Counted from the stretch's first letter, positions 16,504 to 34,182 are shown. The stretch is DNA of 64,000 nucleotides from an uncultured Planctomycetaceae bacterium (GCA_963833985.1 CAWIAD010000001.1:1184001-1248000), one strand, 5' to 3'. The notes: a model not told the origin generated them from the sequence alone. Made by a program: numbers and translations.

Positions 16504-16774
16504 CGGCAATCCCACCCGTTCGTCGCACCCGGTGCGCGCCCGGCGCCGCAGAGCGCAAGGCTCGATCGTCTGTCATTCTAAAGGACATTCTCGGCCGGCA
16601 AGTGCCCTTTTCCCGACCCAGTGCTTGCAATCGTGATGAACAGGAGTCACGTTGGACATCGTCTGACCCGCCGCGCTGCTTAGAATGTCCGGCGGGCACT
16701 ACCGGCGTGCTGCACGGGATCGACGATCGAGGAAGCTTCGCCTCGGAAAACCGAGGCCAGACAGCGAGGGTGCC

Positions 16775-17833
16775 ATGCGTGGCGACACGCCGATCGCGCG
16801 TCAGTGGAAGCTGCTCAGGATGCTTGGCTGTCGGCGTCTCGGCTTGACCATACAAGAGATGAGCACAGAAACGGGAGTCGGGATCAAGACCATCCGGCGC
16901 GATCTGGACTTTTTCCGCGGCCTTGGCTTCCCCTTGACGGAGCACGTGTGCGAACGGGGCCTCAAGCGGTGGCGACTGGCGGGTGCGCACGTGGAACCGC
17001 CCCTGGCATTCAGGCTCGACGAGGCGATTGCCCTCTACCTGGGCCGGCACCTCATGGACCCGCTGGCAGGAACGCCTTTGTGGGACGCCGCGCAGAGTTC
17101 CTTCCGCAAGATCAAGGCGACGCTCGGCGAAAAGGCCCTCGAGTACATCGAGTCCTTTCGCGGCTTTTACCACCAGACGTCCGTCGGCACCAGCTCCTAC
17201 GCCGCCAAGGCCGAGGTGATCGACGCGATCATGGTCGCACTGGAGGACCGGAAGGCAGTACACATTGCCTACCAGTCCCTCAGGGCCACGGAGCCGGCGA
17301 CCCGAGACATCTATCCCTATGGTTTCATCTACCACCGCGGTAGCCTCTACCTGGCGGCCTTCGCACCCGAGCACGACCGGGTCAAGACCTACAAGGTCGA
17401 TCGCGTCGAGAGCGTCGAGGTCAGCAACCGGCGCTTCGAGCGACCCGCGGACTTCGACCTCGACCGGTTTCTCTCAGGCTCGTTCGGGGTCTTCGAGGGC
17501 GAGGGCGATCTCCTGACGGTGTGCGTCCGCTTTGCGCCGTGCGTGTCGCGGTACGTCAGGGAAGCGCACTGGCACTCCAGCCAGGAGCTCACCCCTCAAA
17601 CCGATGGCAGCCTGCTCGCCCGGTTCCACCTCAACAGCCTCGAGGAATTCAGGGCCTGGATCCTCGGCTTCGGCTCGAACGCTCTCGTGTTGCAGCCGAC
17701 CTCCCTGCGCACCGAGATAGCGGCGGAGGTCGGGCTCATGCTCCGTATGTACGGGCAGGAAGTTGGTGCTGGAGATGACATGAAAGCGTTCGATGATGGG
17801 AATCAGGTCAGGTCTGTGCCAGCGGACAAATGA
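16775..17833 (+). CDS. HTH-WYL-WCX transcriptional regulator directly upstream of the cas genes
   Basis: N-terminal HTH (KTIRRDL); YPYGFIYHRGSLYL; YKVDRV; WILGFGSNALVLQP. Confidence 0.9.
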   Translation: MRGDTPIARQWKLLRMLGCRRLGLTIQEMSTETGVGIKTIRRDLDFFRGLGFPLTEHVCERGLKRWRLAGAHVEPPLAFRLDEAIALYLGRHLMDPLAGTPLWDAAQSSFRKIKATLGEKALEYIESFRGFYHQTSVGTSSYAAKAEVIDAIMVALEDRKAVHIAYQSLRATEPATRDIYPYGFIYHRGSLYLAAFAPEHDRVKTYKVDRVESVEVSNRRFERPADFDLDRFLSGSFGVFEGEGDLLTVCVRFAPCVSRYVREAHWHSSQELTPQTDGSLLARFHLNSLEEFRAWILGFGSNALVLQPTSLRTEIAAEVGLMLRMYGQEVGAGDDMKAFDDGNQVRSVPADK

Positions 17834-17897
17834 GGACGATCGATCCTCAGCGTCATTGCCTTGCGCGAAAGCAGTGCGATCCCGAGGGAGTCATTCC

Positions 17898-18524
17898 ATG
17901 CCAGTCGTTGACCTTGCCTTCGAGCTTGCAGGCAACTCGCTGCCCGTGGACCACGGTTATGAGCTTTTCTCCGCCATTTGCCGCGTCGTCCCGCGTCTGC
18001 ACGGCGACCGGCACATCGGCGTGCATGCCATTCGTGGTCAGGCGGCGAGCGCGGGAACAATCTTGCTCGGAGGCCGCTCGCGCTTGCGGGTGCGCTTGCC
18101 CTCGGAGGAGATCGCGGCTTACCTGGCGCTGGCCGGTTCGGCTCTCGACGTGAACGGCCATCGGCTCCGCGTCGGCATCCCGCACGTCGAGTCACTGATC
18201 CCTACCGCGAACCTGTCCGCACGCATCGTGACCTTCAAGGCCATGGTCGAGCCCGACCCGTTCCTGGCCTGTGTGCGCCGCCATCTGACCGCGCTCGGCG
18301 TTTCCGGCGACCCTCAGCTCGTCCCCTCGACGCGGGAACCCTGGACCGGCCGCCCTTTCCGCCGCGTCCTCCGCGTCAAGGGCCGAGCCATCGTCGGCTA
18401 TGCCCTGCGAGTCCTCGCCTTGACGGCGGAGGAGTCGGTCCTGATCCAGGAGCGCGGTCTCGGGGGGCGAAGGCGATTTGGATGCGGCGTCTTCCTGCCA
18501 TTGAAGGAGGTGAACCCTCGATGA
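17898..18524 (+). CDS. cas6: Cas6 (Cmx6, Myxan type), copy A
   Basis: VDLAF...PVDHGYELFSA; C-terminal glycine loop GLGGRRRFGCGVF. Confidence 0.92.
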   Translation: MPVVDLAFELAGNSLPVDHGYELFSAICRVVPRLHGDRHIGVHAIRGQAASAGTILLGGRSRLRVRLPSEEIAAYLALAGSALDVNGHRLRVGIPHVESLIPTANLSARIVTFKAMVEPDPFLACVRRHLTALGVSGDPQLVPSTREPWTGRPFRRVLRVKGRAIVGYALRVLALTAEESVLIQERGLGGRRRFGCGVFLPLKEVNPR

Positions 18525-20920
18525 ACACAGACATTTTGTGGGCCAAGAGCAAGCAGCACGAGGAGCAATACCACCCGTCCATGTCGCTCTCCGGTCACCT
18601 GTCGGATGTCCTTGAGGCGGCGATCCGGATCATAGACTCCACCGGTGACGAGCAGCTTCGGGCACTTGGTCTGGACCCGGAGCGGTACGGAGATCGACTG
18701 AGGCGATGCGTGCGGTTGGCCGCGGCCCTCCACGATATCGGCAAGGCAAACGACCATTTTCAGGGAATGATTCGCGGCAAGCGCGATGTGCGTCAGAACC
18801 CGCAGGGCGTACGGCACGAATGGGTGTCGGTTCTGATGCTACGGACACTCAGGGACTGGCTTCTACCGGTATTCGATAAGGCCGAATGCGACTTCGACAT
18901 CGTGGAATGGGCCGTATCCGCACACCACCCAGCTCGCGATCACCAAAGCCCTCCCCCCTCGTGTCCGCCAGGGGCGGGTCCGGAGATAACGCTCCTCACA
19001 GGTCATGACGAGATCCAAGGAATTCTCGACTGGGTTCAAGAAACATTCGAGATTGCCGCCCTCCAACCGAAGCACGGCTCCGAGAAGCGACCACTCGTTG
19101 GCCCGGAAAACGCGTTCACGGAGCTTGCGATTTGGGCGAAGTCGGCTCGCCGCACCTGGAATCGAATGCGTGGCGATAAAGAGGCCTCGCGGTTCGTCGC
19201 CGCGGTCAAGGCCTGTCTGATCGCCGCCGACGTGGCGGGCTCGGTGCTGCCGAGGTCCGGGGTGGACGGATCGACGGATTGGAATTGGATTGCAAGGGCC
19301 TTATCGAACCTGCCGAAATCGGGCGACGTCCAGAAGATCGCCGATCATCGCCTGGACGGCAAACCACCCCGCGAATTCCAGCAAGCGGTCGGGGCTTCTC
19401 ACTGGCCGGTCACTTACGTCAAGGCGGGTTGCGGGACCGGCAAGACCGTGGCCGCATACCTCTGGGCCGCTGTCAACCACCCGACACGCCGGCTCTTCTT
19501 CTGCTATCCCACGACGGGCACGGCCACGGAGGGGTTCAAGGATTACCTGTTCGAGCCGGACGGAGAGCTGGGAGATCTCGGCGCCAGGCTGTTCCACAGC
19601 CGGCGGGACGTGGACTTCGACATCATCCTCGGCACGGGTGCAGACTCGCCGCATGCCGAGGCTGACTCGGCCGCGCGGCTGGAAGCGCTGGAAGCCTGGT
19701 CCACACCCATCGTCGCCTGTACGGTCGATACTGTCCTTGGGCTGGTTCAGAATAACAGGCGCGGTCTCTTTGCCTGGCCCGCTCTCGCCCAGTCGGCCTT
19801 CGTCTTCGACGAGATCCACGCCTACGACGACCGGCTCTTCGGAGCACTGCTCCGGTTCCTTCGAGACCTCCACGGGCTCCCTTGCCTGTTAATGACTGCC
19901 AGCTTGCCGAAGCCGCGCGAGGAGGCGCTCTTTCGGACGATCCGGGATGTCCACGACCTGGACCTGCGGCCGATCGAGGGCCCGCGGGAGCTCCAATTAC
20001 TGCCGCGCTACCATAGGCTGAACGCACCCGGCAATGACCCGCTTCCCCTCGTACAGGCCGAGCTCAGGGCCGGCGGCAAGGTGCTCTGGGTCTGCAACAC
20101 GGTGAGCCGTGTGATGGATGCGGCCGACCGCGCCAGCCAGCTCAATCCGCTCATTTACCATAGCCGGTTTCGCTACGTGGATCGTGTTGAGCGGCACAAG
20201 CGAGTTGTCGAGGCCTTCACTCCCGAACACCATGGCCCCGCGCTCGCGATTTGCAGCCAGGTCGCCGAGATGAGCCTGGATCTGAAGGGTTGCACGCTGC
20301 TCGTCACCGACCTGGCGCCGGTTCCGTCCCTGATCCAGCGGTTGGGAAGGCTGAACCGCCAGGCCGCGCCTGGCAACCCGACCAGGCCATTCGTCGTGGT
20401 GGAGCAAGACGAGAGCTCGCGCGACAGGCACCTTCCTTATGCCGCAGGCGACCTGGACGCGGCCCGGACCTGGCTGGAACGTCTGCCGGAATCGGAGATC
20501 AGCCAGCAGCATCTTGCCGATCACTGGGAGCAACTGGCCGAGAAACCGCCAGAACTCGTGCCGAGCGCCTGGCTCGATGGCGGCCCGTCGACAATTGTCA
20601 CGGATCTGCGCGAACCGTCGCAGGGGATCACGGTGATTCTGGATACCGCGGAGTACCCGGATCACCGTGCGCTCCTGCGTTACGATAACCGGATCCGCGA
20701 GTTGCGTCGCAGGGCGCGCGCCGACCAGCGCAGCCTGAGCCGAGAAGAACGGAAGCCACTCCCGGGGGAGCAGGATCGCCTGGCAGCCGTGACGCTGCCA
20801 ATGCCTCCACCTCACGCTCACATCAGGTGGCGCGAGTGGACGCGCTACAAGAGCATACCGGTCGCGCCAGCCGAAGCCATCCACTATGACCTCGAACGAG
20901 GTGCCCGATGGAACGCCTGA
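18521..20920 (+). CDS. cas3: Cas3 HD nuclease-helicase
   Basis: LHDIGKAN; AGCGTGKT; DEIHAYD; MTAS; HSRF; QRLGRLNR; ATGA overlap with cas6. Confidence 0.95.
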   Translation: MNTDILWAKSKQHEEQYHPSMSLSGHLSDVLEAAIRIIDSTGDEQLRALGLDPERYGDRLRRCVRLAAALHDIGKANDHFQGMIRGKRDVRQNPQGVRHEWVSVLMLRTLRDWLLPVFDKAECDFDIVEWAVSAHHPARDHQSPPPSCPPGAGPEITLLTGHDEIQGILDWVQETFEIAALQPKHGSEKRPLVGPENAFTELAIWAKSARRTWNRMRGDKEASRFVAAVKACLIAADVAGSVLPRSGVDGSTDWNWIARALSNLPKSGDVQKIADHRLDGKPPREFQQAVGASHWPVTYVKAGCGTGKTVAAYLWAAVNHPTRRLFFCYPTTGTATEGFKDYLFEPDGELGDLGARLFHSRRDVDFDIILGTGADSPHAEADSAARLEALEAWSTPIVACTVDTVLGLVQNNRRGLFAWPALAQSAFVFDEIHAYDDRLFGALLRFLRDLHGLPCLLMTASLPKPREEALFRTIRDVHDLDLRPIEGPRELQLLPRYHRLNAPGNDPLPLVQAELRAGGKVLWVCNTVSRVMDAADRASQLNPLIYHSRFRYVDRVERHKRVVEAFTPEHHGPALAICSQVAEMSLDLKGCTLLVTDLAPVPSLIQRLGRLNRQAAPGNPTRPFVVVEQDESSRDRHLPYAAGDLDAARTWLERLPESEISQQHLADHWEQLAEKPPELVPSAWLDGGPSTIVTDLREPSQGITVILDTAEYPDHRALLRYDNRIRELRRRARADQRSLSREERKPLPGEQDRLAAVTLPMPPPHAHIRWREWTRYKSIPVAPAEAIHYDLERGARWNA

Positions 20921-21014
20921 CGGCATCAATGAATGGGGACTTACCCCGAGATTCGGTTATTTCGCAAGTACCTCATTGCTCAACGCCTTGCGGCGATCCT
21001 GGTACAGATTGCGG
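20906..21014 (-). CRISPR. Antisense mini-CRISPR: two degenerate repeats and one 34-35 nt spacer; probable crRNA-like regulatory RNA
   Basis: Minus strand reads ...ATCGCCGCAAGGCGTTGAGCAA (18/20 match to the 3' end of the main repeat), spacer TGAGGTACTTGCGAAATAACCGAATCTCGGGGTA, then AGTCCCCATTCATTGATGCCGTCAGGCGTTCCATCG; both hairpins are kept. Confidence 0.82.
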
Positions 21015-21025
21015 TCCTTTCTTAG

Positions 21026-21052
21026 TTGACACCAAGGGGGCTCGAATGTCAA
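21026..21052. promoter_or_regulatory. TTGACA-N15-TGTCAA inverted repeat (two facing consensus -35 hexamers)
   Basis: Seen directly between the mini-CRISPR and its target; no clean -10 at 17 bp on either strand. Confidence 0.55.
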
Positions 21053-21057
21053 TAGTT

Positions 21058-21079
21058 ATGTGAGGAACCTGAGAAATAA
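21058..21079 (+). promoter_or_regulatory. ATG PAM plus 19-nt partial protospacer for the mini-CRISPR spacer (putative Cascade operator)
   Basis: ATG-TGAGGAACCTGAGAAATAA versus spacer TGAGGTACTTGCGAAATAA; runs into the RBS AAGGAG (21078-21083). Confidence 0.78.
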
Positions 21080-21091
21080 GGAGCCACCCCG

Positions 21092-21337
21092 GTGAGAGAC
21101 ATAGACCTCGTTGACGAGATTACCATGTTCCTAAGGTCCACGACAGCCTATCGGATCTGTCGGCCATACGGTGCTGAGCCGCGTGATGCACTTGGCGAAA
21201 TCTACCTCCGCTTGCTCGGCGGCGCCAGTAAGCCGATTCGAAAGCCGACGGCATGGGTGAGGACGAACGCGACTTTTCTTCTCCGGAATTACCTGCGGCG
21301 CGAGAACAGCCGACTCTACCAGCCCTCGGAGATCTAA
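21092..21337 (+). CDS. Sigma-70 region-2-like small protein (81 aa)
   Basis: DALGEIYLRLL...IRKPTAWVRTNATFLLRNYLRRE resembles the ECF region 2 pattern; AAGGAG RBS and GTG start. Confidence 0.6.
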   Translation: MRDIDLVDEITMFLRSTTAYRICRPYGAEPRDALGEIYLRLLGGASKPIRKPTAWVRTNATFLLRNYLRRENSRLYQPSEI

Positions 21338-21338
21338 C

Positions 21339-21617
21339 ATGCCCCTCTTTTCTCTCCAATCGCTTCAATCTCTGGGAACTGACTTTAAGGACGAGGCCAG
21401 GTATGCCCTTGAGTCATTCGAGCTTCGCGATCTTGTGGCTCGGGAGCTCATGCGACTCCCCCAGCGGGAGAGGGAAGCCATAACGGCCCTCGCCGGTCTC
21501 AGCACCGAGTCATGCCGATCTGTTGCTCGAAAACACGGCGTGTCAGCGCAGACGGTTTCCAATTGGGCCAAGGAGGCTCAGCGCAAGTTGCGTCCCAAGC
21601 TGGAGGCTTACGCGTGA
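21339..21617 (+). CDS. Sigma-70 region-4-like HTH protein (92 aa)
   Basis: LMRLPQREREAI...SVARKHGVSAQTVSNWAKEAQRKLR; GGAG 7 nt upstream; stop overlaps the cas6 copy B GTG. Confidence 0.78.
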   Translation: MPLFSLQSLQSLGTDFKDEARYALESFELRDLVARELMRLPQREREAITALAGLSTESCRSVARKHGVSAQTVSNWAKEAQRKLRPKLEAYA

Positions 21618-22219
21618 GGTTCGTACTCGATATTTGTTGGCCGCTCTTACCTCCAGGGCGATTCCCCGTTCACTACCAATATTATCTGCTAGCCAGTCTC
21701 TCGCGAATAGTGCCCGAGATTCACTCCACCCCCACCCTGGGTGTCCATCCGATTCGTGGAATGAAGTCCGCCCTCGGGTTTCTGGAAATCGATCGGCGCA
21801 GTGCGGTAACACTCAGAGCACCTGCCGAGGTTCTTCCGACGCTGGTCCCGTTAGGAGGAAAGAAACTCGACATCGGCGGGTGTCAAGTCCGGCTGGGCGT
21901 TCCACGACTCACCGCCCTGGCGCCCGCAGAGCGCCTTCGAGCCGACCTCGTCACTATCAAAGGATACATGTCGATGCCCGAATTCGAGTCGGGGGTAAGG
22001 AGACAGCTGTCCGCGCTTGGGATGAGCGATGAAGTCCGTGCGGAGGTTGGGCGTCGACGGGTCGTCCAGATACGGGGACAGACCATCGTCGGCTTCGGCC
22101 TTCGCCTCTCCGGTCTCTCCGAGGACGAGTCGGTCCGAGTTCAGCAGTACGGACTCGGGGGACGGCGACACTTCGGCTGCGGCCTATTCCAACCTGACTT
22201 GACGGAGATAACGTCGTGA
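21614..22219 (+). CDS. cas6: Cas6 (Cmx6-like), divergent copy B
   Basis: GVHPIRG; LVTIKG; GLGGRRHFGCGLF; GTGA overlaps at both ends. Confidence 0.88.
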   Translation: MRFVLDICWPLLPPGRFPVHYQYYLLASLSRIVPEIHSTPTLGVHPIRGMKSALGFLEIDRRSAVTLRAPAEVLPTLVPLGGKKLDIGGCQVRLGVPRLTALAPAERLRADLVTIKGYMSMPEFESGVRRQLSALGMSDEVRAEVGRRRVVQIRGQTIVGFGLRLSGLSEDESVRVQQYGLGGRRHFGCGLFQPDLTEITS

Positions 22220-23910
22220 AGGGCGCTGAAAAGAAAACGAGGTTACAAGAGGGTCCAAGCCATTTGACCATGCGCCTCTTCGCCCCGGGTATGTCGGTCC
22301 TGCACCGCGCTGGGCTGGGCGGGCTGGCCTGCACGCTGAATGCGGTGGAAGATCGGCATCGAAGCGGGCTGTTGCGCCCCGAGCGATTGCCCGCGCCGTT
22401 CGAGGGCGACAAGCCCCCCTGGGAGATCGACGAGCAGTCGGTGACGCTCCGGTTCGGCAAGCCCGAGAACGCGGGCGAGTACCTGAGGAAGCTTTTCGAG
22501 TTTGCCTTTCAAATTCGCAAGGACGGCCTGATCAGCCTGCCTGGGCAATTCCAAGGGGAGTTATCGGCAGCCGTGCTCGCCGACTTGCAATTGGGGCTCA
22601 CGCTGACGTTCTTGCAGCACGGCCGGGTTCGGGCTCTTGCGAAGGAGGCCACCGTAGCCAGCTATGATACTGACGGAGATGGTGTTCCCGGAGTCGTGGT
22701 CCAGTACAAGAAGTGCTCGGCGTTCAAGCACCAGAAGGGCTGGGAATCGCTGGTTGGCGGCAGTGGCGCCCTGGTATCCGGTTCCATCGCTGTCGATGGG
22801 CCCATCAGTCCCGGCTCGGTCGTGAGGCACGTGGCATACACCGGCGATACGGGTATCGAGGATCCTCCGGAGCGGATGCTTCCTCTGTACTTCGCGCTCG
22901 TCGGCTGCCTGGCCCTGCCCGTGAACCGTGGCGTCGCGGCGCTCATCGTTCCGGATGTCACGGACCTCTCCGAGTTCGTCCTCGATCGTGCGGCGATGAC
23001 CCCGACAACAGCAACGCAGTGCCAGATCGCCGGTGCCGCCGACGCCGCCTTCAGCGCCCAGGTGCGAATCCGCCGCAATCCAAGGAGATCCGCCGAGGTG
23101 GAGTCGAGGGCTCGCCAGGCGCTGTCTGGGTCCGCAATCCCGGCATGCTACGCCATGACCTTCACGCCGACTCCCTGGGCCAGTCAGCAGAAGTCTCGCG
23201 TGGCGACGATCATCGTTCCTCAGGGAGAGAAGCGAACGCTGGACCTCTACGAGCGAGCCGCCACTCACCTGCCCGCAAGGATTGCGACTCGCACGGTCCG
23301 AGAATCGACCGGGCGTGGCAAGCAGCGCACGGTGACCGAGCGCCAGGAGTCGTTCCGAGCCGATAGCATTGTCCGCCCCCTGGTCGCCGAGAACCTGGCA
23401 TTGGGCCGCCCCTGGTATTCCGGGTTCGTGAAACTACTGACCAAGACAAACCCAGCGACCGGCAACCCTTACCGCAACCAACTTCCCTTCGAGCGCGGAG
23501 GATTGAATGCCATGATTTCAGATCCCCAGATGTGGGACGACCGGGGAGAGGAGCTTATCGTCAAGGCCGTCCACGAGGCCATCCGGCAGACCCTTGGCCG
23601 GATCAAGCAGGAGACCGATGGGCCGGGGAACAAGCCGCCCTCACAGGCGACCAAGAACCGCTGGACGAGGTTCCAGGAGAAACTGCGGCTCTCGCTGGCC
23701 GAATCGAAAACCCCAAACGACGCCCGCCATGCCCTGTGCAATCTGTTCAGCCGGGCTGGCCGCGTGCCCGCTCTGGCCGAGTATTGGCAGCTTGTGCTGC
23801 CCAAGCTCGCCGACCGCCGCTGGCAACTGACGCGCGACCTGGCCTTGCTCGCCCTCGCGAGCTATTCCGGCAGATCCAGCGAAAACGGTGACGAACAACC
23901 TCAACAGTGA
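22216..23910 (+). CDS. cas8: Cas8 large subunit (Cmx8/Cas8a1 Myxan type)
   Basis: MSVLHRAGLGGL; TFLQHG; WASQQKSR; RDLALLALASY; position before cas7 and cas5. Confidence 0.88.
   Translation: MKGAEKKTRLQEGPSHLTMRLFAPGMSVLHRAGLGGLACTLNAVEDRHRSGLLRPERLPAPFEGDKPPWEIDEQSVTLRFGKPENAGEYLRKLFEFAFQIRKDGLISLPGQFQGELSAAVLADLQLGLTLTFLQHGRVRALAKEATVASYDTDGDGVPGVVVQYKKCSAFKHQKGWESLVGGSGALVSGSIAVDGPISPGSVVRHVAYTGDTGIEDPPERMLPLYFALVGCLALPVNRGVAALIVPDVTDLSEFVLDRAAMTPTTATQCQIAGAADAAFSAQVRIRRNPRRSAEVESRARQALSGSAIPACYAMTFTPTPWASQQKSRVATIIVPQGEKRTLDLYERAATHLPARIATRTVRESTGRGKQRTVTERQESFRADSIVRPLVAENLALGRPWYSGFVKLLTKTNPATGNPYRNQLPFERGGLNAMISDPQMWDDRGEELIVKAVHEAIRQTLGRIKQETDGPGNKPPSQATKNRWTRFQEKLRLSLAESKTPNDARHALCNLFSRAGRVPALAEYWQLVLPKLADRRWQLTRDLALLALASYSGRSSENGDEQPQQ
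23512..23910 (+). CDS. cas11: Putative Cas11 small subunit from an internal in-frame start in cas8 (132 aa)
   Basis: GGAGGA at 23497-23502, 9 nt before an in-frame ATG; internal Cas11 translation is known for I-B, I-C and I-D. Confidence 0.65.
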   Translation: MISDPQMWDDRGEELIVKAVHEAIRQTLGRIKQETDGPGNKPPSQATKNRWTRFQEKLRLSLAESKTPNDARHALCNLFSRAGRVPALAEYWQLVLPKLADRRWQLTRDLALLALASYSGRSSENGDEQPQQ

Positions 23911-23931: not shown

Positions 23932-24819
23932 ATGAGCCTGCACGTATTCGCGAACTTCGTGACACCCTTTGGCGCGGCGGCCAATAACCGGGCCGAGACC
24001 GAGGGCAACATCACGACCCTTCAAAAGCTCGTCTGGATGGGGGAGACACACACCACCGTGAGCGCCGAGGCCATCCGCTTTGCTCTTCGAAGGCGACTCG
24101 CTTCCCTTGATGAGCGGGGTTCGAACCGCAAGTGGGACGAGGACGAGAGGAACAACACCTGGCAGGACTGGACATTCAAGGGATGGACCTCGAAGGGCGG
24201 CGAGACATTCATCGACGACGACCTGCTCGGCTTCATGACCGCCGAGGCCGCGAAGGAAGAAGGCGAGTCGGGCACCGCCAACGTCCGCCGGGCGGTGCTG
24301 GAGGTGACGCGGGCCGTATCGCTCACCCCGTGGTCGGGTGACGTCACGTTCAATGCAGCATCGCCGGGCGCCACACCCTCGGCACAGAAGAAAGGGAGCA
24401 ACCCGGTGCCATACGGCACCGAGGTCCACGCGACTCGCTACCAGTACGGCATCGCGCTGACGCCCGAGCGGCTTCGCGACAGCTCCCGGGCGGCGAAGGC
24501 CATCGAGGCGCTCTGCAATCTCGGCACGGTCGCCGGTAATCACGGCCGTTTTCTTTTCGACTTCTCACCCGACGCCGTCGTCTTCCGCATCACCCAGGAT
24601 CCCGCGCCACGCCTGCTGTACTGCTTCGAGACAGCGGATGACGGCAAGAGCATCATCGCCCCGCGCCTGGAGGCCCGCGTCAGCGCTGGCGACATCGACA
24701 GCAGCGAGCTGATCATCGCGGGGGTCAAGGTCCAGGGTGTCGATACGGAAAAGGGCGTGAAGGCCGCCTGCGCCCAGGCCGTCACCAGGATCAACGAGTC
24801 CTTGAAGGCCAAGAGGTAA
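23932..24819 (+). CDS. cas7: Cas7 (DevR/Cst2 type)
   Basis: AANNRAETEGNITTLQKL; VSAEAIRFALR; FIDDDLLGFM; EVHATRYQY. Confidence 0.93.
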   Translation: MSLHVFANFVTPFGAAANNRAETEGNITTLQKLVWMGETHTTVSAEAIRFALRRRLASLDERGSNRKWDEDERNNTWQDWTFKGWTSKGGETFIDDDLLGFMTAEAAKEEGESGTANVRRAVLEVTRAVSLTPWSGDVTFNAASPGATPSAQKKGSNPVPYGTEVHATRYQYGIALTPERLRDSSRAAKAIEALCNLGTVAGNHGRFLFDFSPDAVVFRITQDPAPRLLYCFETADDGKSIIAPRLEARVSAGDIDSSELIIAGVKVQGVDTEKGVKAACAQAVTRINESLKAKR

Positions 24820-24822
24820 TCC

Positions 24823-25458
24823 ATGCTCGGCTTGTACGTTACCGTTCCGATCGCCTGCTTCCGGAAAGGTCTGGCGCGGGAGTATCTCGAGACCGAGCCC
24901 CTGCCACCGCCCGCGACGTGCTACGGCTTCCTGCTCTCGTTGGTCGGTGAAACCGATCGGCGGCGGCACATCGGTGCTCGCGTTTGCCCCGCCCTGCTCA
25001 ACAAGCCGGAGATGAGCGTCGTCATCAGGACCGTCTGGCGCGTCAAGAAGACGCCCCTGGGCTCGTCGGGAAATACCCGGCCTGACTATCAGCAACTTCT
25101 CTCGCCGATCCGTCTGCTCATCTGGCTCGACTCCTCCGAGGAAAAGGGCGAGCAGCCAGGGCTGGAAGACCGCGTATCCGTCGCGCTTGACGAGCCTGGC
25201 CGCATTTCCCGGTTCGGCGGCCTCTCCCTCGGCGAGAGCACGCACCTGGTTGATGAGGTTCGGCGCCCACGCGCCGGCGACGACGAAGACGTTCCAGCGC
25301 GGGCGTATCTCCTGGCCGAACGGGGACGCCTGTCGCTGCCGGTCTGGGTTGACCATGTCGGATCGGCCGGCACCCGCTTCGCGGTCGGGGAGCTTGTCGA
25401 TCAGCACGGAATGAAGCCGCCGGATCGAATCCGGATGCCCATCATTACTCCAACATAG
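24823..25458 (+). CDS. cas5: Cas5 (DevS/Cmx5 type)
   Basis: VPIACFRKGLAREYLETEPLPPPATCYGFLLSLVGE; GGLSLGESTHLVDE. Confidence 0.93.
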   Translation: MLGLYVTVPIACFRKGLAREYLETEPLPPPATCYGFLLSLVGETDRRRHIGARVCPALLNKPEMSVVIRTVWRVKKTPLGSSGNTRPDYQQLLSPIRLLIWLDSSEEKGEQPGLEDRVSVALDEPGRISRFGGLSLGESTHLVDEVRRPRAGDDEDVPARAYLLAERGRLSLPVWVDHVGSAGTRFAVGELVDQHGMKPPDRIRMPIITPT

Positions 25459-25491: not shown

Positions 25492-27150
25492 ATGCCAGAA
25501 CAACCGCTCGACGGTCGCGCTACCCGTCTGCGCGTGATGTCCCTGCACGCCCTGGCCTACTGCCAGCGTCTTTTCTACCTGGAGGAGGTCGAGGAGATTC
25601 GCGTCGCCGACGAGCGCGTCTTCGCCGGTCGCGAGCTGCATGCGTCGCTCGAGGCCGGTGAGGACGGGGAGCGAACGCAACTTGAACTCGAAGACCGCGA
25701 CCTGGGACTGGTGGGCAAGGTCGACGCCCTCCGGAAACGGGATGGATCGCTGGTGCCTTATGAGCACAAGCGAGGGAAGTCGTGCAAGCTTGACGGGCAG
25801 GCCCATGCCTGGCCGTCCGACCGGCTCCAGGTCATCGCCTATGCCGTGCTCATCGAGTCCGCCTTCGGTCAGACCATTCCCGAGGGCCGGGTTCGCTACC
25901 ACGCCGACCACGCCACGGTGCGCATTCCCATCGACGCGCAGGCCCGCCAGGACCTGGACGATGCCATCGCGACGGCACGCCGGCTGAGCGAGTCGACCGA
26001 GCGACCCCCTGTCACCGACAACGAGCGGCTCTGTGCGAAGTGCTCGCTGGCGCCGGTGTGCCTGCCCGAGGAGAGCCGGCTCGTCGAGGACAACGGACGT
26101 CAGCCGGTCCGGCTCTTCCCGCCAGATCGCGATGGGACGACGCTTCATGTCGTGACGCCGGGCGCCCGCGTCGGCCGCAGCGCGGAGACACTCACGATCA
26201 CCTTGCCCGACGTCACCCCTCCCTCGCGCCACCCGATCCGCGGCATCGACTCCGTGCTCCTCCATGGTCATGTCCAGGCGACGACCCAGGCACTGAGCCT
26301 CTGTGTCGATCACGACATTCCCGTTCACTGGTTGACGACAACCGGCCGCCATGTCGCGAGCCTGACCGCCTCGGCCGGCCAGGTCCAGCGCCGGGTGCGG
26401 CAGTATCGCGCCCTTGCGGATGAGGCGGCCTGCCTGCGGCTCGCCCGCGCCCTGGTGCGTGCCAAGATCGAGGGCCAGCACCGCTACCTCCTCCGCGCCT
26501 CGCGTGGCGACGACTCCCAGCGCGACGCCATGGAGGCCGATCTCGTCCTGCTTCGCTCGGCCCTCTTGAGCCTGGACCAGGCAGCGGATCGCGACTCTCT
26601 TCGAGGTCACGAGGGCTCCGCCGCCGTGGGATACTTCGGCGGGCTCGGCCGGCTTCTGGTCGCCTCGGTACCCGACTCGCTGCGGTATTCCACCCGCAGC
26701 CGGCGGCCTCCCCTGGACCGCTTCAATGCCCTGCTCAGCTTCGGCTACGGCCTGCTGCACACGGCCGTCATGCGGGCCATCCTGGCAAGCGGCCTGGAGC
26801 CCTCGCTGGGCTTTTTCCACACCCCGCGCAGCGCCGCGTATCCGCTGGTGCTCGACCTCATGGAACTGTTCCGGGTCATCCTCTGGGACATGGTGGTCAT
26901 CGGCTCCCTGAACCGCGGCCAGTGGGATCCGGACGCCGACTTCCTCGTCACCAAGGCGAAGGTCTGGCTTTCCGAGGACGGCCGCAAGAAGGCGATCAAC
27001 CTGTTCGAGTCGCGCCTTGACGAGACCTGGAAGCACCCGGTCCTCGGTTACTCGCTCTCCTACGCACGGACCCTGGAACTGGAGGCCCGGCTCCTGGAGA
27101 AGGAGTGGAGCGGCGAGTCCGGACTCTTCGCACGCCTGCGGATTCGCTGA
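25492..27150 (+). CDS. cas1: Cas4-Cas1 fusion
   Basis: YCQRLFY, GKVD, EHKRG and CAKCSLAPVC (Cas4 Fe-S/RecB); LRGHEG, NALLSFGY, GFFH and DLMELFR (Cas1). Confidence 0.95.
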   Translation: MPEQPLDGRATRLRVMSLHALAYCQRLFYLEEVEEIRVADERVFAGRELHASLEAGEDGERTQLELEDRDLGLVGKVDALRKRDGSLVPYEHKRGKSCKLDGQAHAWPSDRLQVIAYAVLIESAFGQTIPEGRVRYHADHATVRIPIDAQARQDLDDAIATARRLSESTERPPVTDNERLCAKCSLAPVCLPEESRLVEDNGRQPVRLFPPDRDGTTLHVVTPGARVGRSAETLTITLPDVTPPSRHPIRGIDSVLLHGHVQATTQALSLCVDHDIPVHWLTTTGRHVASLTASAGQVQRRVRQYRALADEAACLRLARALVRAKIEGQHRYLLRASRGDDSQRDAMEADLVLLRSALLSLDQAADRDSLRGHEGSAAVGYFGGLGRLLVASVPDSLRYSTRSRRPPLDRFNALLSFGYGLLHTAVMRAILASGLEPSLGFFHTPRSAAYPLVLDLMELFRVILWDMVVIGSLNRGQWDPDADFLVTKAKVWLSEDGRKKAINLFESRLDETWKHPVLGYSLSYARTLELEARLLEKEWSGESGLFARLRIR

Positions 27151-27749: not shown

Positions 27750-30700
27750 CCGCCCTCGACCATGACGCCGAAAGGCGTTGAGCACTCATGGCCTCATCGG
27801 CGTCGATCTCCGAAAAGCCCCGCCCTCGACCATGACGCCGAAAGGCGTTGAGCACAAGGCCGGCGGCTGGGACCACAGCCGAAATCACCCCCGCCCTCGA
27901 CCATGACGCCGAAAGGCGTTGAGCACGAATACCCGACGAGATCATCGTGCTGGTGCCCTATCCGCCCTCGACCATGACGCCGAACGGCGTTGAGCACATG
28001 GCAATAGCTTCTGGTCGCGCCAGGTCGAGATGCCGCCCTCGACCATGACGCCGAAAGGCGTTGAGCACCCCTTTTTCTCGCCGTGCTGAATCGCCGTGGC
28101 GATCCGCCCTCGACCATGACGCCGAAAGGCGTTGAGCACAGAACGGGATGCACCCATAGTCGTGCGGCTCCTGGCCGCCCTCGACCATGACGCCGAAAGG
28201 CGTTGAGCACACCCGGCCGCGGCTGCGGTGCGGTCGAACCCGGATTGACCGCCCTCGACCATGACGCCGAAAGGCGTTGAGCACGAAACCGCCCCTGGGC
28301 CCTTACCACCAAGTAACGCCCGCCCTCGACCATGACGCCGAAAGGCGTTGAGCACATCGAACAGACCGCCGATCACGCCAAGCCGGCCGACCGAGCCCGC
28401 CCTCGACCATGACGCCGAAAGGCGTTGAGCACATCCTAACGACCCGAGCACATATAACACCGCGGACATCCGCCCTCGACCATGACGCCGAAAGGCGTTG
28501 AGCACACCGGCCGGCGGCGATCCGGTCGCGGACGCACGGTGACCGCCCTCGACCATGACGCCGAAAGGCGTTGAGCACGTTGAGGAACATCACCCCGTCG
28601 TCCCGCAGCACTCGCCCGCCCTCGACCATGACGCCGAAAGGCGTTGAGCACACGGCACGCCGAACAACGCCAACCCCATCAATGTGCCCGCCCTCGACCA
28701 TGACGCCGAAAGGCGTTGAGCACCGGCCTCGCCCTGGCGGACGTGGAGATCAGCGCAGCCCGCCCTCGACCATGACGCCGAAAGGCGTTGAGCACAACGT
28801 GAACGTCCCGGTGGTCAACACCGGCGACGCCCCGCCCTCGACCATGACGCCGAAAGGCGTTGAGCACGTGCTATTATTGAGTCAGTGGAGATGAGTCCTG
28901 AACCGCCCTCGACCATGACGCCGAAAGGCGTTGAGCACGAGCTGCGTGCGGATGCGCGTGTGGCGGAGCTGCCGTTCCGCCCTCGACCATGACGCCGAAA
29001 GGCGTTGAGCACGCTACCGCACCCACATTGTGCCGCTGGCCCACGAGGCCGCCCTCGACCATGACGCCGAAAGGCGTTGAGCACTCTACCGTTCGATGAT
29101 TCCCGGCGGCGCGTTCCTGCCCGCCCTCGACCATGACGCCGAAAGGCGTTGAGCACGGTGATCGGCGACGAGATCATCCCCGGCTCGAAGCTCCGCCCTC
29201 GACCATGACGCCGAAAGGCGTTGAGCACGTCTCCTTCGCCACGAAGCGGGGGACAGTGATGCTCCGCCCTCGACCATGACGCCGAAAGGCGTTGAGCACG
29301 TCAACCAGCGCGCGCTTCATACTCTGGAACAGCGACCGCCCTCGACCATGACGCCGAAAGGCGTTGAGCACCAATTGCTGCCCGCCGCCGATCAGAGGCC
29401 GGTCCTCCGCCCTCGACCATGACGCCGAAAGGCGTTGAGCACCGGCCTCGATGGTCGGATGAGTCCCCAGGCTCGCCCGCCCTCGACCATGACGCCGAAA
29501 GGCGTTGAGCACGCCCCGTCCGGCCTGCACTGGGGTGCAAGCCAGCATCGCCCGCCCTCGACCATGACGCCGAAAGGCGTTGAGCACGCTCGCCGTTGCG
29601 CGGGCGATGGCAATCACAGGCGCCGCCCTCGACCATGACGCCGAAAGGCGTTGAGCACACGCTGGCCCGTCTTGGCCTCGGCCTGGTCGAGATCCCGCCC
29701 TCGACCATGACGCCGAAAGGCGTTGAGCACCCGAGATCGCCGGCATTGAGGTAGACGCCCGCAACCGCCCTCGACCATGACGCCGAAAGGCGTTGAGCAC
29801 CACCTACCTCACTTTCTCGTCAATCTGATAGGGTCCGCCCTCGACCATGACGCCGAAAGGCGTTGAGCACAGATCGAATCCAAGAGAGTCTCCTGGCTCT
29901 GGCAACCGCCCTCGACCATGACGCCGAAAGGCGTTGAGCACTACGGCAGTTCGTCCCATGTTCCCACTAATACATCCGCCCTCGACCATGACGCCGAAAG
30001 GCGTTGAGCACCACCCGATGTCCTCAAGGTCACTCGAACCCTGGTTCCGCCCTCGACCATGACGCCGAAAGGCGTTGAGCACTCCCCGAGATGCTCGTGA
30101 GCTTCGGCAATGAGATCCGCCCTCGACCATGACGCCGAAAGGCGTTGAGCACCCAGTGATTTTGATGGCGTGCGGCATCAGGTGAACAGCCCGCCCTCGA
30201 CCATGACGCCGAAAGGCGTTGAGCACCCCCCAGGCCGTGCAAGCTCCCGGGGACGTGGGCGCCGCCCTCGACCATGACGCCGAAAGGCGTTGAGCACTAC
30301 CTACACGCGGGGCGGCACCGGGATCACCTTGACCGCCCTCGACCATGACGCCGAAAGGCGTTGAGCACGGGTTGGTGGCGGTGACCGAGAGCGTGGTCGA
30401 GGTCCGCCCTCGACCATGACGCCGAAAGGCGTTGAGCACACCCGCAAGGGCCGGAACGTCGCGGCCTACCCGCCCGCCCTCGACCATGACGCCGAAAGGC
30501 GTTGAGCACTCGCCGGCAGTGTGCTGGATCCGCTGGATGCCGTTCCCGCCCTCGACCATGACGCCGAAAGGCGTTGAGCACAACTGCGGATCTTCATGCC
30601 CCGCGTGAGCCCGAAAGCCGCCCTCGACCATGACGCCGAAAGGCGTTGAGCACCAGAACCCCGACGCGCGGGTTGATGGCGAGCTGGGGCCGCCCTCGAC

Positions 30701-33700
30701 CATGACGCCGAAAGGCGTTGAGCACTATCGGCGGCCAAGGGCCAGGGCGGCAACGCCCGTCCGCCCTCGACCATGACGCCGAAAGGCGTTGAGCACAGCC
30801 GCCGGCGGACGGACCGCCGCAGAACGGCAAGCCGCCCTCGACCATGACGCCGAAAGGCGTTGAGCACACGATCCTCGGGCACTCGCCCGACATCGCGGAC
30901 CCGCCCTCGACCATGACGCCGAAAGGCGTTGAGCACATCCGCGTCGGCGACACGATCATCGCCGTGACGGTCCGCCCTCGACCATGACGCCGAAAGGCGT
31001 TGAGCACCTGGGCAGGCTGCCTCTTCGTCCCGTACTCCGGACCGCCCTCGACCATGACGCCGAAAGGCGTTGAGCACCCGAGACGATGGTCCAGGAGTTG
31101 CCAGTCCTTCAGCCGCCCTCGACCATGACGCCGAAAGGCGTTGAGCACCAGGAGCTGTCTCGTCCGACTCCCTCACCCAGATCGCCGCCCTCGACCATGA
31201 CGCCGAAAGGCGTTGAGCACGCGCTGGGCGTGGCGAGGCTCTTGAACGACCCCGGCCGCCCTCGACCATGACGCCGAAAGGCGTTGAGCACAGTTCACCC
31301 CGAGCCCAGACGACCTTGCTGACTACCCCGCCCTCGACCATGACGCCGAAAGGCGTTGAGCACATCGGTAAGGACTTCTGGATCGGCCGGCTGATCTGGT
31401 CCGCCCTCGACCATGACGCCGAAAGGCGTTGAGCACACCGTGCCGCCGCCCGGCCAGGCCGTCGGAGCGCCATCCCGCCCTCGACCATGACGCCGAAAGG
31501 CGTTGAGCACACCAGTTCGTGCAGCTCCCAACGGCCGTCAACCAGGCCGCCCTCGACCATGACGCCGAAAGGCGTTGAGCACACGGTAATAGCTTCTGGT
31601 CGCGCCAGGTCGAAATGTCCGCCCTCGACCATGACGCCGAAAGGCCTTGAGCACACATATTCGGCGCAGCGTGCCAGCGCAGCTTGCGCCCGCCCTCGAC
31701 CATGACGCCGAAAGGCGTTGAGCACCACTTCGACACCAGGCGGGATGCGCTCGCGGATCGCCCGCCCTCGACCATGACGCCGAAAGGCGTTGAGCACAAG
31801 GAGCTGGAGGAGAACCCGCCGGCCCGGCTGCCCCGCCCTCGACCATGACGCCGAAAGGCGTTGAGCACGGCGCTGGACGCCGCGGCGGTCGCCGTCGTCC
31901 TTCTGGCCCGCCCTCGACCATGACGCCGAAAGGCGTTGAGCACCGGTTTATCCGGCTGAAGAAGGCCGGGACAATCGGCCGCCCTCGACCATGACGCCGA
32001 AAGGCGTTGAGCACTCGTCCACGACCTTGCGGCCGTAGAGGACGGGAATCCGCCCTCGACCATGACGCCGAAAGGCGTTGAGCACACCACGCACCAGCAT
32101 GAAGCCAAGAGCCGATCGGAGCCACCCCGCCCTCGACCATGACGCCGAAAGGCGTTGAGCACTCCAGATCGGCATCCTTGTCATCGACCGAAACTGTCCG
32201 CCCTCGACCATGACGCCGAAAGGCGTTGAGCACATCCGCAGCATCCCCGGCGCGTGCCGTCTGGCGGGCCGCCCTCGACCATGACGCCGAAAGGCGTTGA
32301 GCACCCGAGCCCCAGAAAGGCGCATGGCGCCAACGGGTCCCGCCCTCGACCATGACGCCGAAAGGCGTTGAGCACAGCACTGAGCCGAAACACAGGAGAC
32401 GAGACGATGCCGCCCTCGACCATGACGCCGAAAGGCGTTGAGCACTTTCCCGGAGTGCTCTGGCTATTTACGCCCCGTCCGTCCGCCCTCGACCATGACG
32501 CCGAAAGGCGTTGAGCACCGGCCCACTCCGAGCGCCCGCCGCCAGTCGGTCACGAGCCCGCCCTCGACCATGACGCCGAAAGGCGTTGAGCACCCAAGCG
32601 AAAAACGCAGAATCTCCCTGACCGTGAACGACCGCCCTCGACCATGACGCCGAAAGGCGTTGAGCACCAGCCCATTCCAGATCGCCTACTCCGTGACCAG
32701 CGACCGCCCTCGACCATGACGCCGAAAGGCGTTGAGCACCTCGTCATCGCGGCCTGCGCCGCACCGATCATCGCGCCGCCCTCGACCATGACGCCGGAAG
32801 GCGTTGAGCACTCCCAGGCCGTGAACGACATTAGCAGCTCTGCGTTCCGCCCTCGACCATGACGCCGAAAGGCGTTGAGCACATCCGGGTACGAGCGTAC
32901 TCTGGCTCAGTCCGGCTGCCGCCCTCGACCATGACGCCGAAAGGCGTTGAGCACGGGTAACGCCTCCGGCTTGCGGACGGGCGACGGTTCCGCCCTCGAC
33001 CATGACGCCGAAAGGCGTTGAGCACTCACTCTGAATAGCGGCACCGGTGGCGCCACCCTGCCGCCCTCGACCATGACGCCGAAAGGCGTTGAGCACTCTG
33101 GCGATCGTCGCCTGGACATCAGCCAGTTGCGCCCGCCCTCGACCATGACGCCGAAAGGCGTTGAGCACTCGTTGCCGTTGAGCAGCGTGTCAATCCCCTG
33201 GTCCAGGCCGCCCTCGACCATGACGCCGAAAGGCGTTGAGCACCTCGATGCGCGCGACGAGTCCAACGCGGGGGCGACCGCCCTCGACCATGACGCCGAA
33301 AGGCGTTGAGCACTCTATGTTTCGACGGGCAAGCCCGTCCCGGGCGACTTCCGCCCTCGACCATGACGCCGAAAGGCGTTGAGCACTCCATGAGCCGCAG
33401 CTTGCCGCGCTCCAGAGCCATGGCCGCCCTCGACCATGACGCCGAAAGGCGTTGAGCACAGCAGCAACAAGCCGCGTCAGATCCCCACCGTGTCCGCCCT
33501 CGACCATGACGCCGAAAGGCGTTGAGCACCGGCCTGGTCAAGGGTGACGGTGAACGCCGAGCTGGCCGCCCTCGACCATGACGCCGAAAGGCGTTGAGCA
33601 CCGCGTGTCGGACTGGACCACGCCCGGGCCGTAGGCCGCCGCCCTCGACCATGACGCCGAAAGGCGTTGAGCACGGGTTCTACGTGTTGCGCCACGACGG

Positions 33701-34182
33701 CAATTTCGGCACCGCCCTCGACCATGACGCCGAAAGGCGTTGAGCACCTGACTGAGGCTGCTGACGTGGCGTGGCCACAGGAAGGCCGCCCTCGACCATG
33801 ACGCCGAAAGGCGTTGAGCACTCAGGCTCGGCTTGCGTCCCTCGGGGAACCGATCGCCGCCCTCGACCATGACGCCGAAAGGCGTTGAGCACAAGCTCTC
33901 GATCCTCGTCCCTGTCCGCGAACGCACGCCGCCCTCGACCATGACGCCGAAAGGCGTTGAGCACCGGGTCTCCTCGCTGATCCACGAGCGGTCGTTCAAG
34001 AGCCGCCCTCGACCATGACGCCGAAAGGCGTTGAGCACGAGCACCTGCCGGCGACCGGTCTGCCGGCGCTCCTGCCGCCCTCGACCATGACGCCGAAAGG
34101 CGTTGAGCACACCAAGAGGCCGCACCATTCGGGCTCCCTCGGACGACCGCCCTCGACCATGACGCCGAAAGGCGTTGAGCAC
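27750..34182 (+). CRISPR. CRISPR array with about 90 repeats and 89 spacers (33-41 nt); repeat CCGCCCTCGACCATGACGCCGAAAGGCGTTGAGCAC
   Basis: 36-nt repeat counted by hand; ACGCC-GAAA-GGCGT hairpin and TTGAGCAC handle; orientation from leader position and repeat family. Confidence 0.99.

Follow-up and report, generated by a model that had tools for sequence, protein, structure and literature searches.

A crRNA-like mini-array as a putative regulator of its own Cascade operon in a type I-MYXAN CRISPR-Cas locus of Planctomycetota

The subject of this study is a minus-strand mini-CRISPR in a 64,000-nucleotide (nt) stretch of DNA, hereafter the window, from an uncultured Planctomycetaceae bacterium (GCA_963833985.1, CAWIAD010000001.1). 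On its plus strand, the window encodes a single, complete CRISPR-Cas system of type I-MYXAN (I-B). The element lies in the gap between cas3 and the Cascade operon of this system and comprises two degenerate repeats, psiR1 and psiR2, and a pseudo-spacer, psiS, whose beginning matches a site just upstream of that operon. By analogy with the CreR RNAs, we propose that the mini-array specifies a CRISPR RNA (crRNA)-like regulator that acts on its own Cascade operon, and we put the probability of this reading at about 0.8. The anatomy of the mini-array, its uniqueness, the co-variation of guide and target and the fit of the protospacer-adjacent motif (PAM) are seen in the sequence. The locus would be a new member of the known class of CreR and other regulatory mini-arrays, and the mechanism is not new.

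Anatomy of the mini-array and its target

On its minus strand, the gap contains CAATCTGTACCAGGATCGCCGCAAGGCGTTGAGCAA (psiR1), TGAGGTACTTGCGAAATAACCGAATCTCGGGGTA (psiS) and AGTCCCCATTCATTGATGCCGTCAGGCGTTCCATCG (psiR2), in that order (Table 1). A preliminary description of this DNA had claimed the two degenerate repeats, their hairpins and the handle TTGAGCAA, and all of these are present; the wider range that it gave for psiR1 (20976-21014) allows for indels. The hairpin of psiR2 spans the stop codon of cas3. The 3' end of psiR1, CGCCGCAAGGCGTTGAGCAA, agrees with the corresponding 3' stretch of the array repeat at 18 of 20 positions; its handle TTGAGCAA stands against the canonical array handle TTGAGCAC. 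In the window, psiR1 is the sole off-array site within four mismatches of the 20-mer repeat core, with one other site at five. Across the whole 10.16-Mb genome, the 19-nt repeat core occurs 90 times in the forward direction, in the array, and once in reverse, at psiR1; the reversed-pattern control gave no genome occurrences. The second repeat is more diverged. It agrees with the array repeat at 18/36 positions in an ungapped comparison, a level that 0.39% of window positions reach and that is weak by itself. The hairpin motif GAYGCC-N4-GGCGTT, on the other hand, has 10 off-array copies in 20.3 million strand positions, and the chance of finding such a motif 48 nt downstream of psiR1 on the same strand is about 2e-5. 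Since psiR1 is unique outside the array and the psiR2 hairpin motif is rare, the mini-array lies beyond chance: it is real and repeat-derived.

The local hairpins fold with -6.5 kcal/mol for psiR1, -7.5 kcal/mol for psiR2 (z -2.5) and -9.6 kcal/mol for the true repeat. The fold of the whole precursor was rejected as support, being no better than that of shuffled sequences (z -1.29); it pairs psiR1 with psiR2. No Rfam family matched in the gap between cas3 and Cascade, and the only matches to CRISPR-DR families were weak and lay in the array. In CreR elements, psiR1 conserves the bases of the 5' handle and psiR2 those of the hairpin or 3' handle (10.1101/2023.03.10.532045). The window follows the same division of labour, psiR1 keeping the 5' handle and psiR2 the hairpin.

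The pseudo-spacer, which begins TGAGGTACTTGCGAAATAA, matches TGAGGAACCTGAGAAATAA upstream of the operon at 16 of 19 positions. As claimed before, the mismatches fall at guide positions 6, 9 and 12, that at position 9 being an rU:dG wobble, none of positions 20-24 is matched, and the target is directly preceded by ATG. Type I Cascade flips out every sixth base in its R-loops and leaves it unpaired. The target sits 13 nt upstream of the start codon of the first operon gene. At this site the mini-array RNA has the same sense as the operon mRNA, so the guide must pair with template-strand DNA and not with the mRNA; RNA-RNA antisense control of the operon mRNA was rejected for this reason. Elsewhere in the genome, the guide seed (positions 1-5 and 7-11) with an AYR flank occurs at a single further site (contig 2, about 2986148, minus strand, flank ACA), and about two such sites are expected by chance.

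Co-variation of guide and target in related loci

Relatives of the system were collected in three ways. When 121 genomes of the family were searched with Cas8, 10 proved to contain relatives, the window genome among them, and nine loci were compared; in one of these (L019), the gap, sigma-like open reading frames (ORFs) and a second cas6 separate cas3 from cas8, whereas cas8 follows cas3 directly in the remaining eight. Eight loci, labelled Planctomycetota, Vicinamibacterales and Verrucomicrobiota, came from a scan of one genome per species. Among them, L059 is the contig of L019 and L066 has the same layout as the window; L060, L063, L064 and L065 are without the gap, L061 has no upstream cas3 and L062 is cut within cas8. 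Finally, a metagenome collection was scanned for an 18-mer of the psiR2 hairpin, AACGCCTGACGGCATCAA (read on the plus strand; 20912-20929), which returned 69 stretches. In 17 of these the 18-mer is the core of the true repeats of an array, which identifies psiR2 as a genuine repeat of a sister system. Five of the other 52, which hold no more than four 18-mer matches, also carry a nearby psiR1-like TGCTCAAYGCC, and two of the five (L100 and L123) have cas3, the gap, the sigma-like gene and cas6B, with cas8 also in L123.

Five loci (the window, L059, L066, L100 and L123) share the order cas3, mini-array, target, sigma-like gene, cas6B. In each of them psiR1 is kept, the guide starts directly after a handle TTGAGCAA or TTGAGCAT and it matches a site on the opposite strand, 74-85 nt away and upstream of the sigma-like gene, with 31-43 nt from target to start codon. 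Pairing extends to position 19 in the window (PAM ATG; mismatches 6, 9 and 12), to 14 in L059 (ATG; 6 and 12) and to 17 in L066 (ATG; 6 and 14), in L100 (ATG; no mismatch) and in L123 (ATA; 12).

Co-variation of spacer and target in homologous loci had been proposed as a check on the preliminary description, and it was found. Seven guide positions (2, 5, 7, 8, 10, 11 and 13) hold two or three different bases among the loci, and at each of them the target is identical to the guide in all five. Agreement drops to two of five loci at positions 6 and 12, and to between none and two at positions 18-24. Mismatches within the paired stretches are concentrated accordingly, six of the eight falling at position 6 or 12. 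Judged from these alignments, the pattern is that expected of an RNA-guided Cascade site, and not of a protein operator or a decaying relic.

Conservation of psiR2 can be considered apart from that of the cas3 gene it overlaps. The 18-mer is identical in the window, L059 and L066. Cas3 ends in WNA* in the window and L059 and in WNNA in L066, and in WRK*, WRP* or WRQ* in the four sister loci that have no mini-array (L060, L063, L064 and L065). The final cas3 codons, AAC GCC TGA, are supplied by the psiR2 hairpin, and the remaining 9 nt of the 18-mer are non-coding. Because the Cas3 ends of the sister loci differ and half of the 18-mer lies outside the gene, its conservation is not a coding constraint. 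Cas8 is only 58-74% identical among loci with an identical 18-mer.

The PAM is best judged from a related published system. The I-B Cascade of Synechocystis PCC 6714 is 'subdivided as Myxan', its large subunit was first named Cmx8, and it prefers 5'-AYG-3', with ATA 'a close second' (PMC11096372, Lu et al. 2024). Its repeat, GTGTCCAAACCATTGATGCCGTAAGGCGTTGAGCAC, matches the window repeat at 19 of the 22 nt at the 3' end, which places both in the same repeat family, and differs from the psiR2 hairpin by one loop base. These data back the earlier statement that ATG serves as PAM for Cmx8-type I-B systems. I-B transposon Cascades likewise use ATG (10.1101/2021.10.18.464778). The two systems also share I-MYXAN Cas proteins, and the order AYG, then ATA, agrees with what the five targets show; by this analogy, their four ATG and one ATA fit the expected PAM. 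In contrast, the window Cas8 is only distantly related to solved I-B Cas8 chains such as 8fcj (phmmer E 1.1e-8), whose deposited molecule name is Type I-MYXAN CRISPR-associated Cas8a1/Cmx1, and the window PAM is assigned by homology.

The host locus and the sigma-like gene

The features of the locus are collected in Table 1. All five NCBIfam Cas families of type I-MYXAN score above their curated cut-offs: Cas6/Cmx6 (TIGR02807) with 224 bits and, for cas6B, 170.9 bits against 98.85; Cas8a1/Cmx1 with 160.5 against 80.85 and 120.5 against 47.4; Cas7/DevR with 147.5 against 72.75; Cas5/Cmx5/DevS with 171 against 111.5; and Cas1_MYXAN with 486.8 against 358.05. Genes of the operon are tightly coupled, stops overlapping starts in the ORF map, and the sigma-like gene is translationally coupled to cas6B-cas8. 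The products of cas6A and cas6B are Cas6/Cmx6 paralogues, about 40% identical. cas6B was seen only in loci that have both the mini-array and the sigma-like gene, and its product may be the enzyme that processes the mini-array RNA.

Table 1. Position of the mini-array, its target and the surrounding genes in the window
Feature	Position	Strand	Remarks
Window	1184001-1248000 of contig 1		10.16-Mb genome, 66% GC
psiR2, degenerate repeat	20906-20941	-	hairpin GATGCC-GTCA-GGCGTT at 20912-20927; handle part lost
psiS, pseudo-spacer	20942-20975	-	34 nt; guide positions 1-19 are 20975 down to 20957
psiR1, degenerate repeat	20976-21011	-	hairpin CGCC-GCAA-GGCG, then 8-nt 5' handle TTGAGCAA at 20976-20983
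Palindrome TTGACA-N15-TGTCAA	21026-21052	both	between psiR1 and target
PAM, ATG	21058-21060	+
Target (protospacer, non-target strand)	21061-21079	+	directly before the GGAG ribosome-binding site, 21080-21083
WYL-domain regulator gene	16685-17833	+
cas6A	17793-18524	+	upstream, not behind the targeted site
cas3	ends 20920	+	upstream, not behind the targeted site
cas3 stop codon, TGA	20918-20920	+	within the psiR2 hairpin
Gap between cas3 and first sigma-like ORF			171 nt
Sigma-like gene, N half	21092-21337	+	sigma-2-like, 81 aa; first gene of the presumed controlled operon
Sigma-like gene, C half	21339-21617	+	sigma-4-like, 92 aa
cas6B (second Cas6/Cmx6)	21614-22219	+	likely GTG start at 21614 overlaps the stop of the sigma-like C half
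cas8 (Cas8a1/Cmx1)	22216-23910	+
cas7 (DevR)	23932-24819	+
cas5 (DevS)	24823-25458	+
cas4-cas1 fusion	25492-27150	+	followed by cas2
Main CRISPR array	27750-34182	+	90 repeats of CCGCCCTCGACCATGACGCCGAAAGGCGTTGAGCAC, 89 spacers

Between psiR1 and the target lies a palindrome that is kept as TWGACA...GTCWA in all five loci, 10 bp shorter in L100, and that occurs only twice in the genome. It may represent two -35-like boxes that overlap and point in opposite directions, or be bound by a dimeric regulator, such as the WYL protein or the sigma-4-like half. The target itself is placed downstream of a conserved -35-like TTGACA or TAGACA and upstream of the ribosome-binding site. A terminator-like hairpin with a T-rich tail was also noticed on the plus strand at 20993-21012, inside the 5' part of psiR1 on the opposite strand; it could end cas3 transcription ahead of the operon promoter.

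The first genes behind the target resemble sigma factors. Matches to the family models fall below cut-off, with 21.4 bits against 24 for the N half (Pfam Sigma70_r2) and, for the C half, 20.7 against 24.1 (Sigma70_r4) and 28.9 against 42.9 (TIGR02937). An AlphaFold (AF2) model of a fused homologue reached a pLDDT of 84, and its top Foldseek matches were extracytoplasmic function (ECF) sigma factors (sigma L, H and E), at E 2.6e-3 only and a TM of about 0.35, which is low because the two domains are freely oriented. On the strength of these models we call the product sigma-like, and not firmly an ECF (group 4) sigma-70 factor. The gene is fused in L066 (5854-6357, 167 aa) and L100 (318-794, 158 aa) and split into two ORFs in the window (21092-21617), L059 (5360-5898) and L123 (3173-3763). 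The two ORFs are divided at the linker that joins the sigma-2-like to the sigma-4-like half. The N half of the window aligns to that of the fused homologues of 158-167 aa, and in L059 the second ORF has its own ribosome-binding site.

A profile search with this family against 1.84 billion protein representatives gave 428 matches at E <=1e-3 and 40 at E <=1e-10, including full-length proteins of about 157-194 aa, N halves of about 71-83 aa and C halves of about 87-113 aa. The many half-length members among these matches indicate that the split form is common. Taken together, the sequences suggest that the split sigma-like factor is a natural protein of two subunits and not the product of a disrupted gene. 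The weaker matches are mostly 170-240 aa long and cover profile positions of about 20-140, the span of both halves. Among 400 further genomes of the phylum, five others reach E 1e-8, with weak matches of E 1e-9 to 1e-11 that cover both halves; these (ORFs of 181-1152 aa) were taken for ordinary ECF sigmas and set aside. A word-based protein search with the fused protein returned one relative only.

Repeat-like elements outside arrays were also noticed in other relatives. A different I-MYXAN locus, L115, has a two-repeat mini-array between the WYL gene and cas6A (about 2950-3460, reverse relative to the cas genes). At nine of ten seed bases, its guide matches a site that is flanked by ATG and closely follows a perfect promoter, TTGACA-17-TATAAT, a match whose chance within the locus is about 0.006. 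Single stand-alone repeat-like hairpins occur in L022 (11917), L024 (4958) and L026 (1700, 8487 and 10624), in the WYL-cas6A or cas5-cas4/1 gaps of relatives that lack the insertion between cas3 and cas8. On an AT-rich metagenome contig, a two-repeat mini-array of the window's repeat family (L091, about 2200-2290; L105, about 250-340) adjoins an array of another repeat type, which begins GTTTCAATCCACAGC.

Proposed regulation of the operon, its alternatives and its meaning

We propose that the mini-array is transcribed leftwards from the divergent promoter region at about 21015-21055. Cas6 (A or B) would cleave at both repeat-like hairpins, and the product, made up of the 8-nt TTGAGCAA handle, the pseudo-spacer and the psiR2 hairpin, would be loaded into the I-MYXAN Cascade of the locus; we infer these steps of transcription, processing and loading. 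The first 14-19 guide bases, whose pairing is itself seen in the sequence, would then engage the template strand at the ATG-flanked site. A full R-loop and recruitment of Cas3 are not expected, because pairing ends at 14-19 nt. Bound Cascade would cover the promoter or start region and repress sigma-like-cas6B-cas8-cas7-cas5, and probably also cas4/1-cas2. As shown for CreR elsewhere, the mini-array RNA and the 89 ordinary crRNAs would be rivals for Cas proteins, and Cascade output would rise with a higher crRNA load or when Cascade is destroyed or blocked. Autorepression itself is thus proposed on the model of CreR and CreA.

Mutation and reporter assays have demonstrated such control, and its relief by competing crRNAs, for CreA of the Haloarcula I-B system and for the CreR of the Salmonella I-E and of V-A systems (Liu et al. 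2023, 10.1101/2023.03.10.532045). The window shares with these cases a degenerate psiR1-psiS-psiR2 inside the cas locus, with the same division between handle and 3' part, and a partial guide (11-15 nt in CreR and CreA, 14-19 nt in the window family) to a site that in the window has a probable PAM and presumably lies at the effector promoter. Repression by Cascade in place of cleavage and competition by ordinary crRNAs, both shown there, would apply here as well. The published systems, in contrast, are haloarchaeal I-B and enterobacterial I-E, as compared with an I-MYXAN system of Planctomycetota and relatives. In addition, the window mini-array is antisense to the cas genes, its psiR2 lies over the cas3 stop, its first controlled gene would be sigma-like, and the system is known from its sequence alone.

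Regulatory mini-arrays have been predicted in about 18% of 1243 I-B loci, enriched beside cas6, with targets in the cas6 promoter region, cognate PAMs and seed-proximal pairing (Shmakov et al. 2023, PMC10120712). The window resembles them in its I-B type, the proximity to cas6, the seed-proximal pairing and a candidate regulator as cargo behind the target, an arrangement that was shown for I-D. The words 'sigma' and 'Planctomyc' are absent from the text of that paper, whose large supplementary tables may still hold the clade; two of its supplementary files contain no Planctomycetes, Gemmata, sigma or MYXAN. CreTA of Haloarcula hispanica, a toxin-antitoxin RNA pair repressed by the I-B Cascade, shares the guide logic and a divergent promoter arrangement, putative in the window, around the target. 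Unlike CreTA, the window has no evident small toxin RNA gene, and the sigma-like gene is the only candidate cargo.

Several observations weigh against a CreR-type regulator. Handle and psiR2 hairpin are 48, 29, 34, 30 and 34 nt apart in the five loci, as against about 49 nt in the array. Compared with a normal crRNA unit, four of the five RNAs would lack 14-19 nt, and Cascade would have to assemble on such shortened RNAs. The psiR1 stem of the window has four pairs only. L100 and L123 were retrieved through the psiR2 18-mer, so that its conservation there is not independent, and the five loci are related by descent. A consensus scan of 20700-21300 gave no sigma-70-type promoter; the -35-like TTGACA lies 19 nt from the best -10-like hexamer, with a spacing 10 bp shorter in L100, and we infer both the transcription of the mini-array and the position of the operon promoter. 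Moreover, our searches returned a convincing protospacer for none of the 89 spacers, and the PAM argument rests on the related published system. A blastn-short search of the spacers against their own genome gave no convincing self-target, the best being partial matches of 22-24 nt. Matches of the array in the 121 family genomes were nearly all array-to-array; the two best spacer matches had four mismatches of 35 and of 33 and unlike flanks (CTT and GCC). In phage and plasmid collections, all spacer matches had E >= 0.01 and unrelated hosts.

Among the alternatives, the one that survives best, though we consider it unlikely, is a guard of the CreA kind. In such an arrangement, the RNA and Cascade mainly keep the sigma-like gene or genes silent, and repression of the Cascade genes is a by-product; loss of Cascade or an anti-CRISPR would free the sigma-like protein, which would then either halt growth by sequestering RNA polymerase, an addiction or abortive response of the kind known for CreT and CRISPR-repressed toxins, or start a back-up programme. 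The binding step would be the one also proposed for autorepression. Consistent with a guard, the sigma-like gene comes first behind the target in all five loci, and the mini-array, the sigma-like gene and cas6B are present or absent en bloc among the sister loci. Toxin-antitoxin pairs and transcriptional regulators are found as cargo behind I-D mini-array targets (PMC10120712), and CreA represses both creT and cas8 (10.1101/2023.03.10.532045). There is, however, no evidence of toxicity for the sigma-like gene, its coupling to cas6B-cas8 means that they are controlled jointly, and the 77 nt between psiR1 and the start codon are too few for a separate toxin gene.

It is far less probable that Cascade and the mini-array RNA recruit the sigma-like factor and RNA polymerase for activation. 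The precedent is dCas12f-sigmaE, in which a guide RNA recruits an ECF sigma to start transcription and guide-matching sites lie upstream of its own rpoE-dcas12f loci (PMC12259090). As there, guide, target and a sigma gene, ECF-like in the window, occur in one locus, the target being upstream of the locus itself. However, that system activates with a single nuclease-dead Cas12f, and the geometry here points to repression by a complete, Cas3-bearing type I system: the target extends right up to the ribosome-binding site in the window and is similarly close to the start codon in the other loci, so that behind bound Cascade hardly any space is left for a start site, whereas transcription by dCas12f-sigmaE starts 46 bp from the target-adjacent motif (PMC12259090). 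This geometry and the partial pairing fit the repressive CreR and CreA cases. To our knowledge, moreover, no contact between Cascade and a sigma factor has been described.

Equally improbable is a DNA inverted repeat bound by a protein (the WYL regulator, the sigma-4-like half or another dimer), with the hairpins as relics of an old array and no guide at all. The arms of spacer and target do stand 85 nt apart around the conserved palindrome TWGACA...TGTCWA, and a WYL-domain regulator is encoded upstream. Yet in a site recognised by a protein, positions 6 and 12 would not be the very ones free to vary, a one-sided ATG or ATA would not be needed and the match would not end 14-19 nt from one fixed end; one arm always begins right after a crRNA-type handle, and psiR1 and psiR2 are conserved across phyla. 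The least probable explanation is a non-functional array fragment, inverted and acquired together with the inserted sigma-like gene and cas6B: repeats standing alone are frequent in the family and in CRISPR loci generally (for the latter, PMC10120712), but seven co-varying guide positions and an identical psiR2 18-mer amid such divergent Cas8 proteins argue against a relic.

A CreR-type regulator of the operon may also form part of a larger circuit, which we put forward tentatively and, taken as a whole, regard as doubtful. The mini-array RNA and Cascade would be the sensor, and a dedicated ECF-type sigma, often made of split sigma-2 and sigma-4 polypeptides, the output. Titration by crRNAs or an anti-CRISPR would free the sigma-like factor together with Cas6B and fresh Cascade, and the freed sigma would either steer RNA polymerase towards a defence or stress regulon or bring growth to a halt. 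A sub-case, in which Cascade recruits the sigma for RNA-guided initiation in the manner of dCas12f, is highly improbable. Our literature search found no paper that ties CreR-type control to a sigma factor, and 'sigma' is absent from the text of 10.1101/2024.10.29.618823, as it is from that of PMC10120712.

The results of our study add to the I-MYXAN branch of type I-B a well-supported, co-varying candidate for crRNA-like self-regulation, hosted by Planctomycetota genomes and by contigs that carry the label Planctomycetota; sister systems occur in Acidobacteriota and Verrucomicrobiota. They also offer a five-locus read-out of the pairing rules of its Cascade, in which the seed is preserved but positions 6 and 12 may vary, no pairing goes beyond 14-19 nt and either ATG or ATA stands as the PAM. 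What is new is local, namely the sigma-like and cas6B cargo and the overlap of psiR2 with cas3. The mini-array travels with the sigma-like gene, fused or split, and the second cas6, all three forming a single insert that separates cas3 from cas8. Provided that the sigma-like protein is active, the state of the CRISPR system would be passed on to global transcription in these bacteria, and, should the two-layer circuit hold true, CRISPR occupancy would be read out as a sigma-dependent transcription programme.

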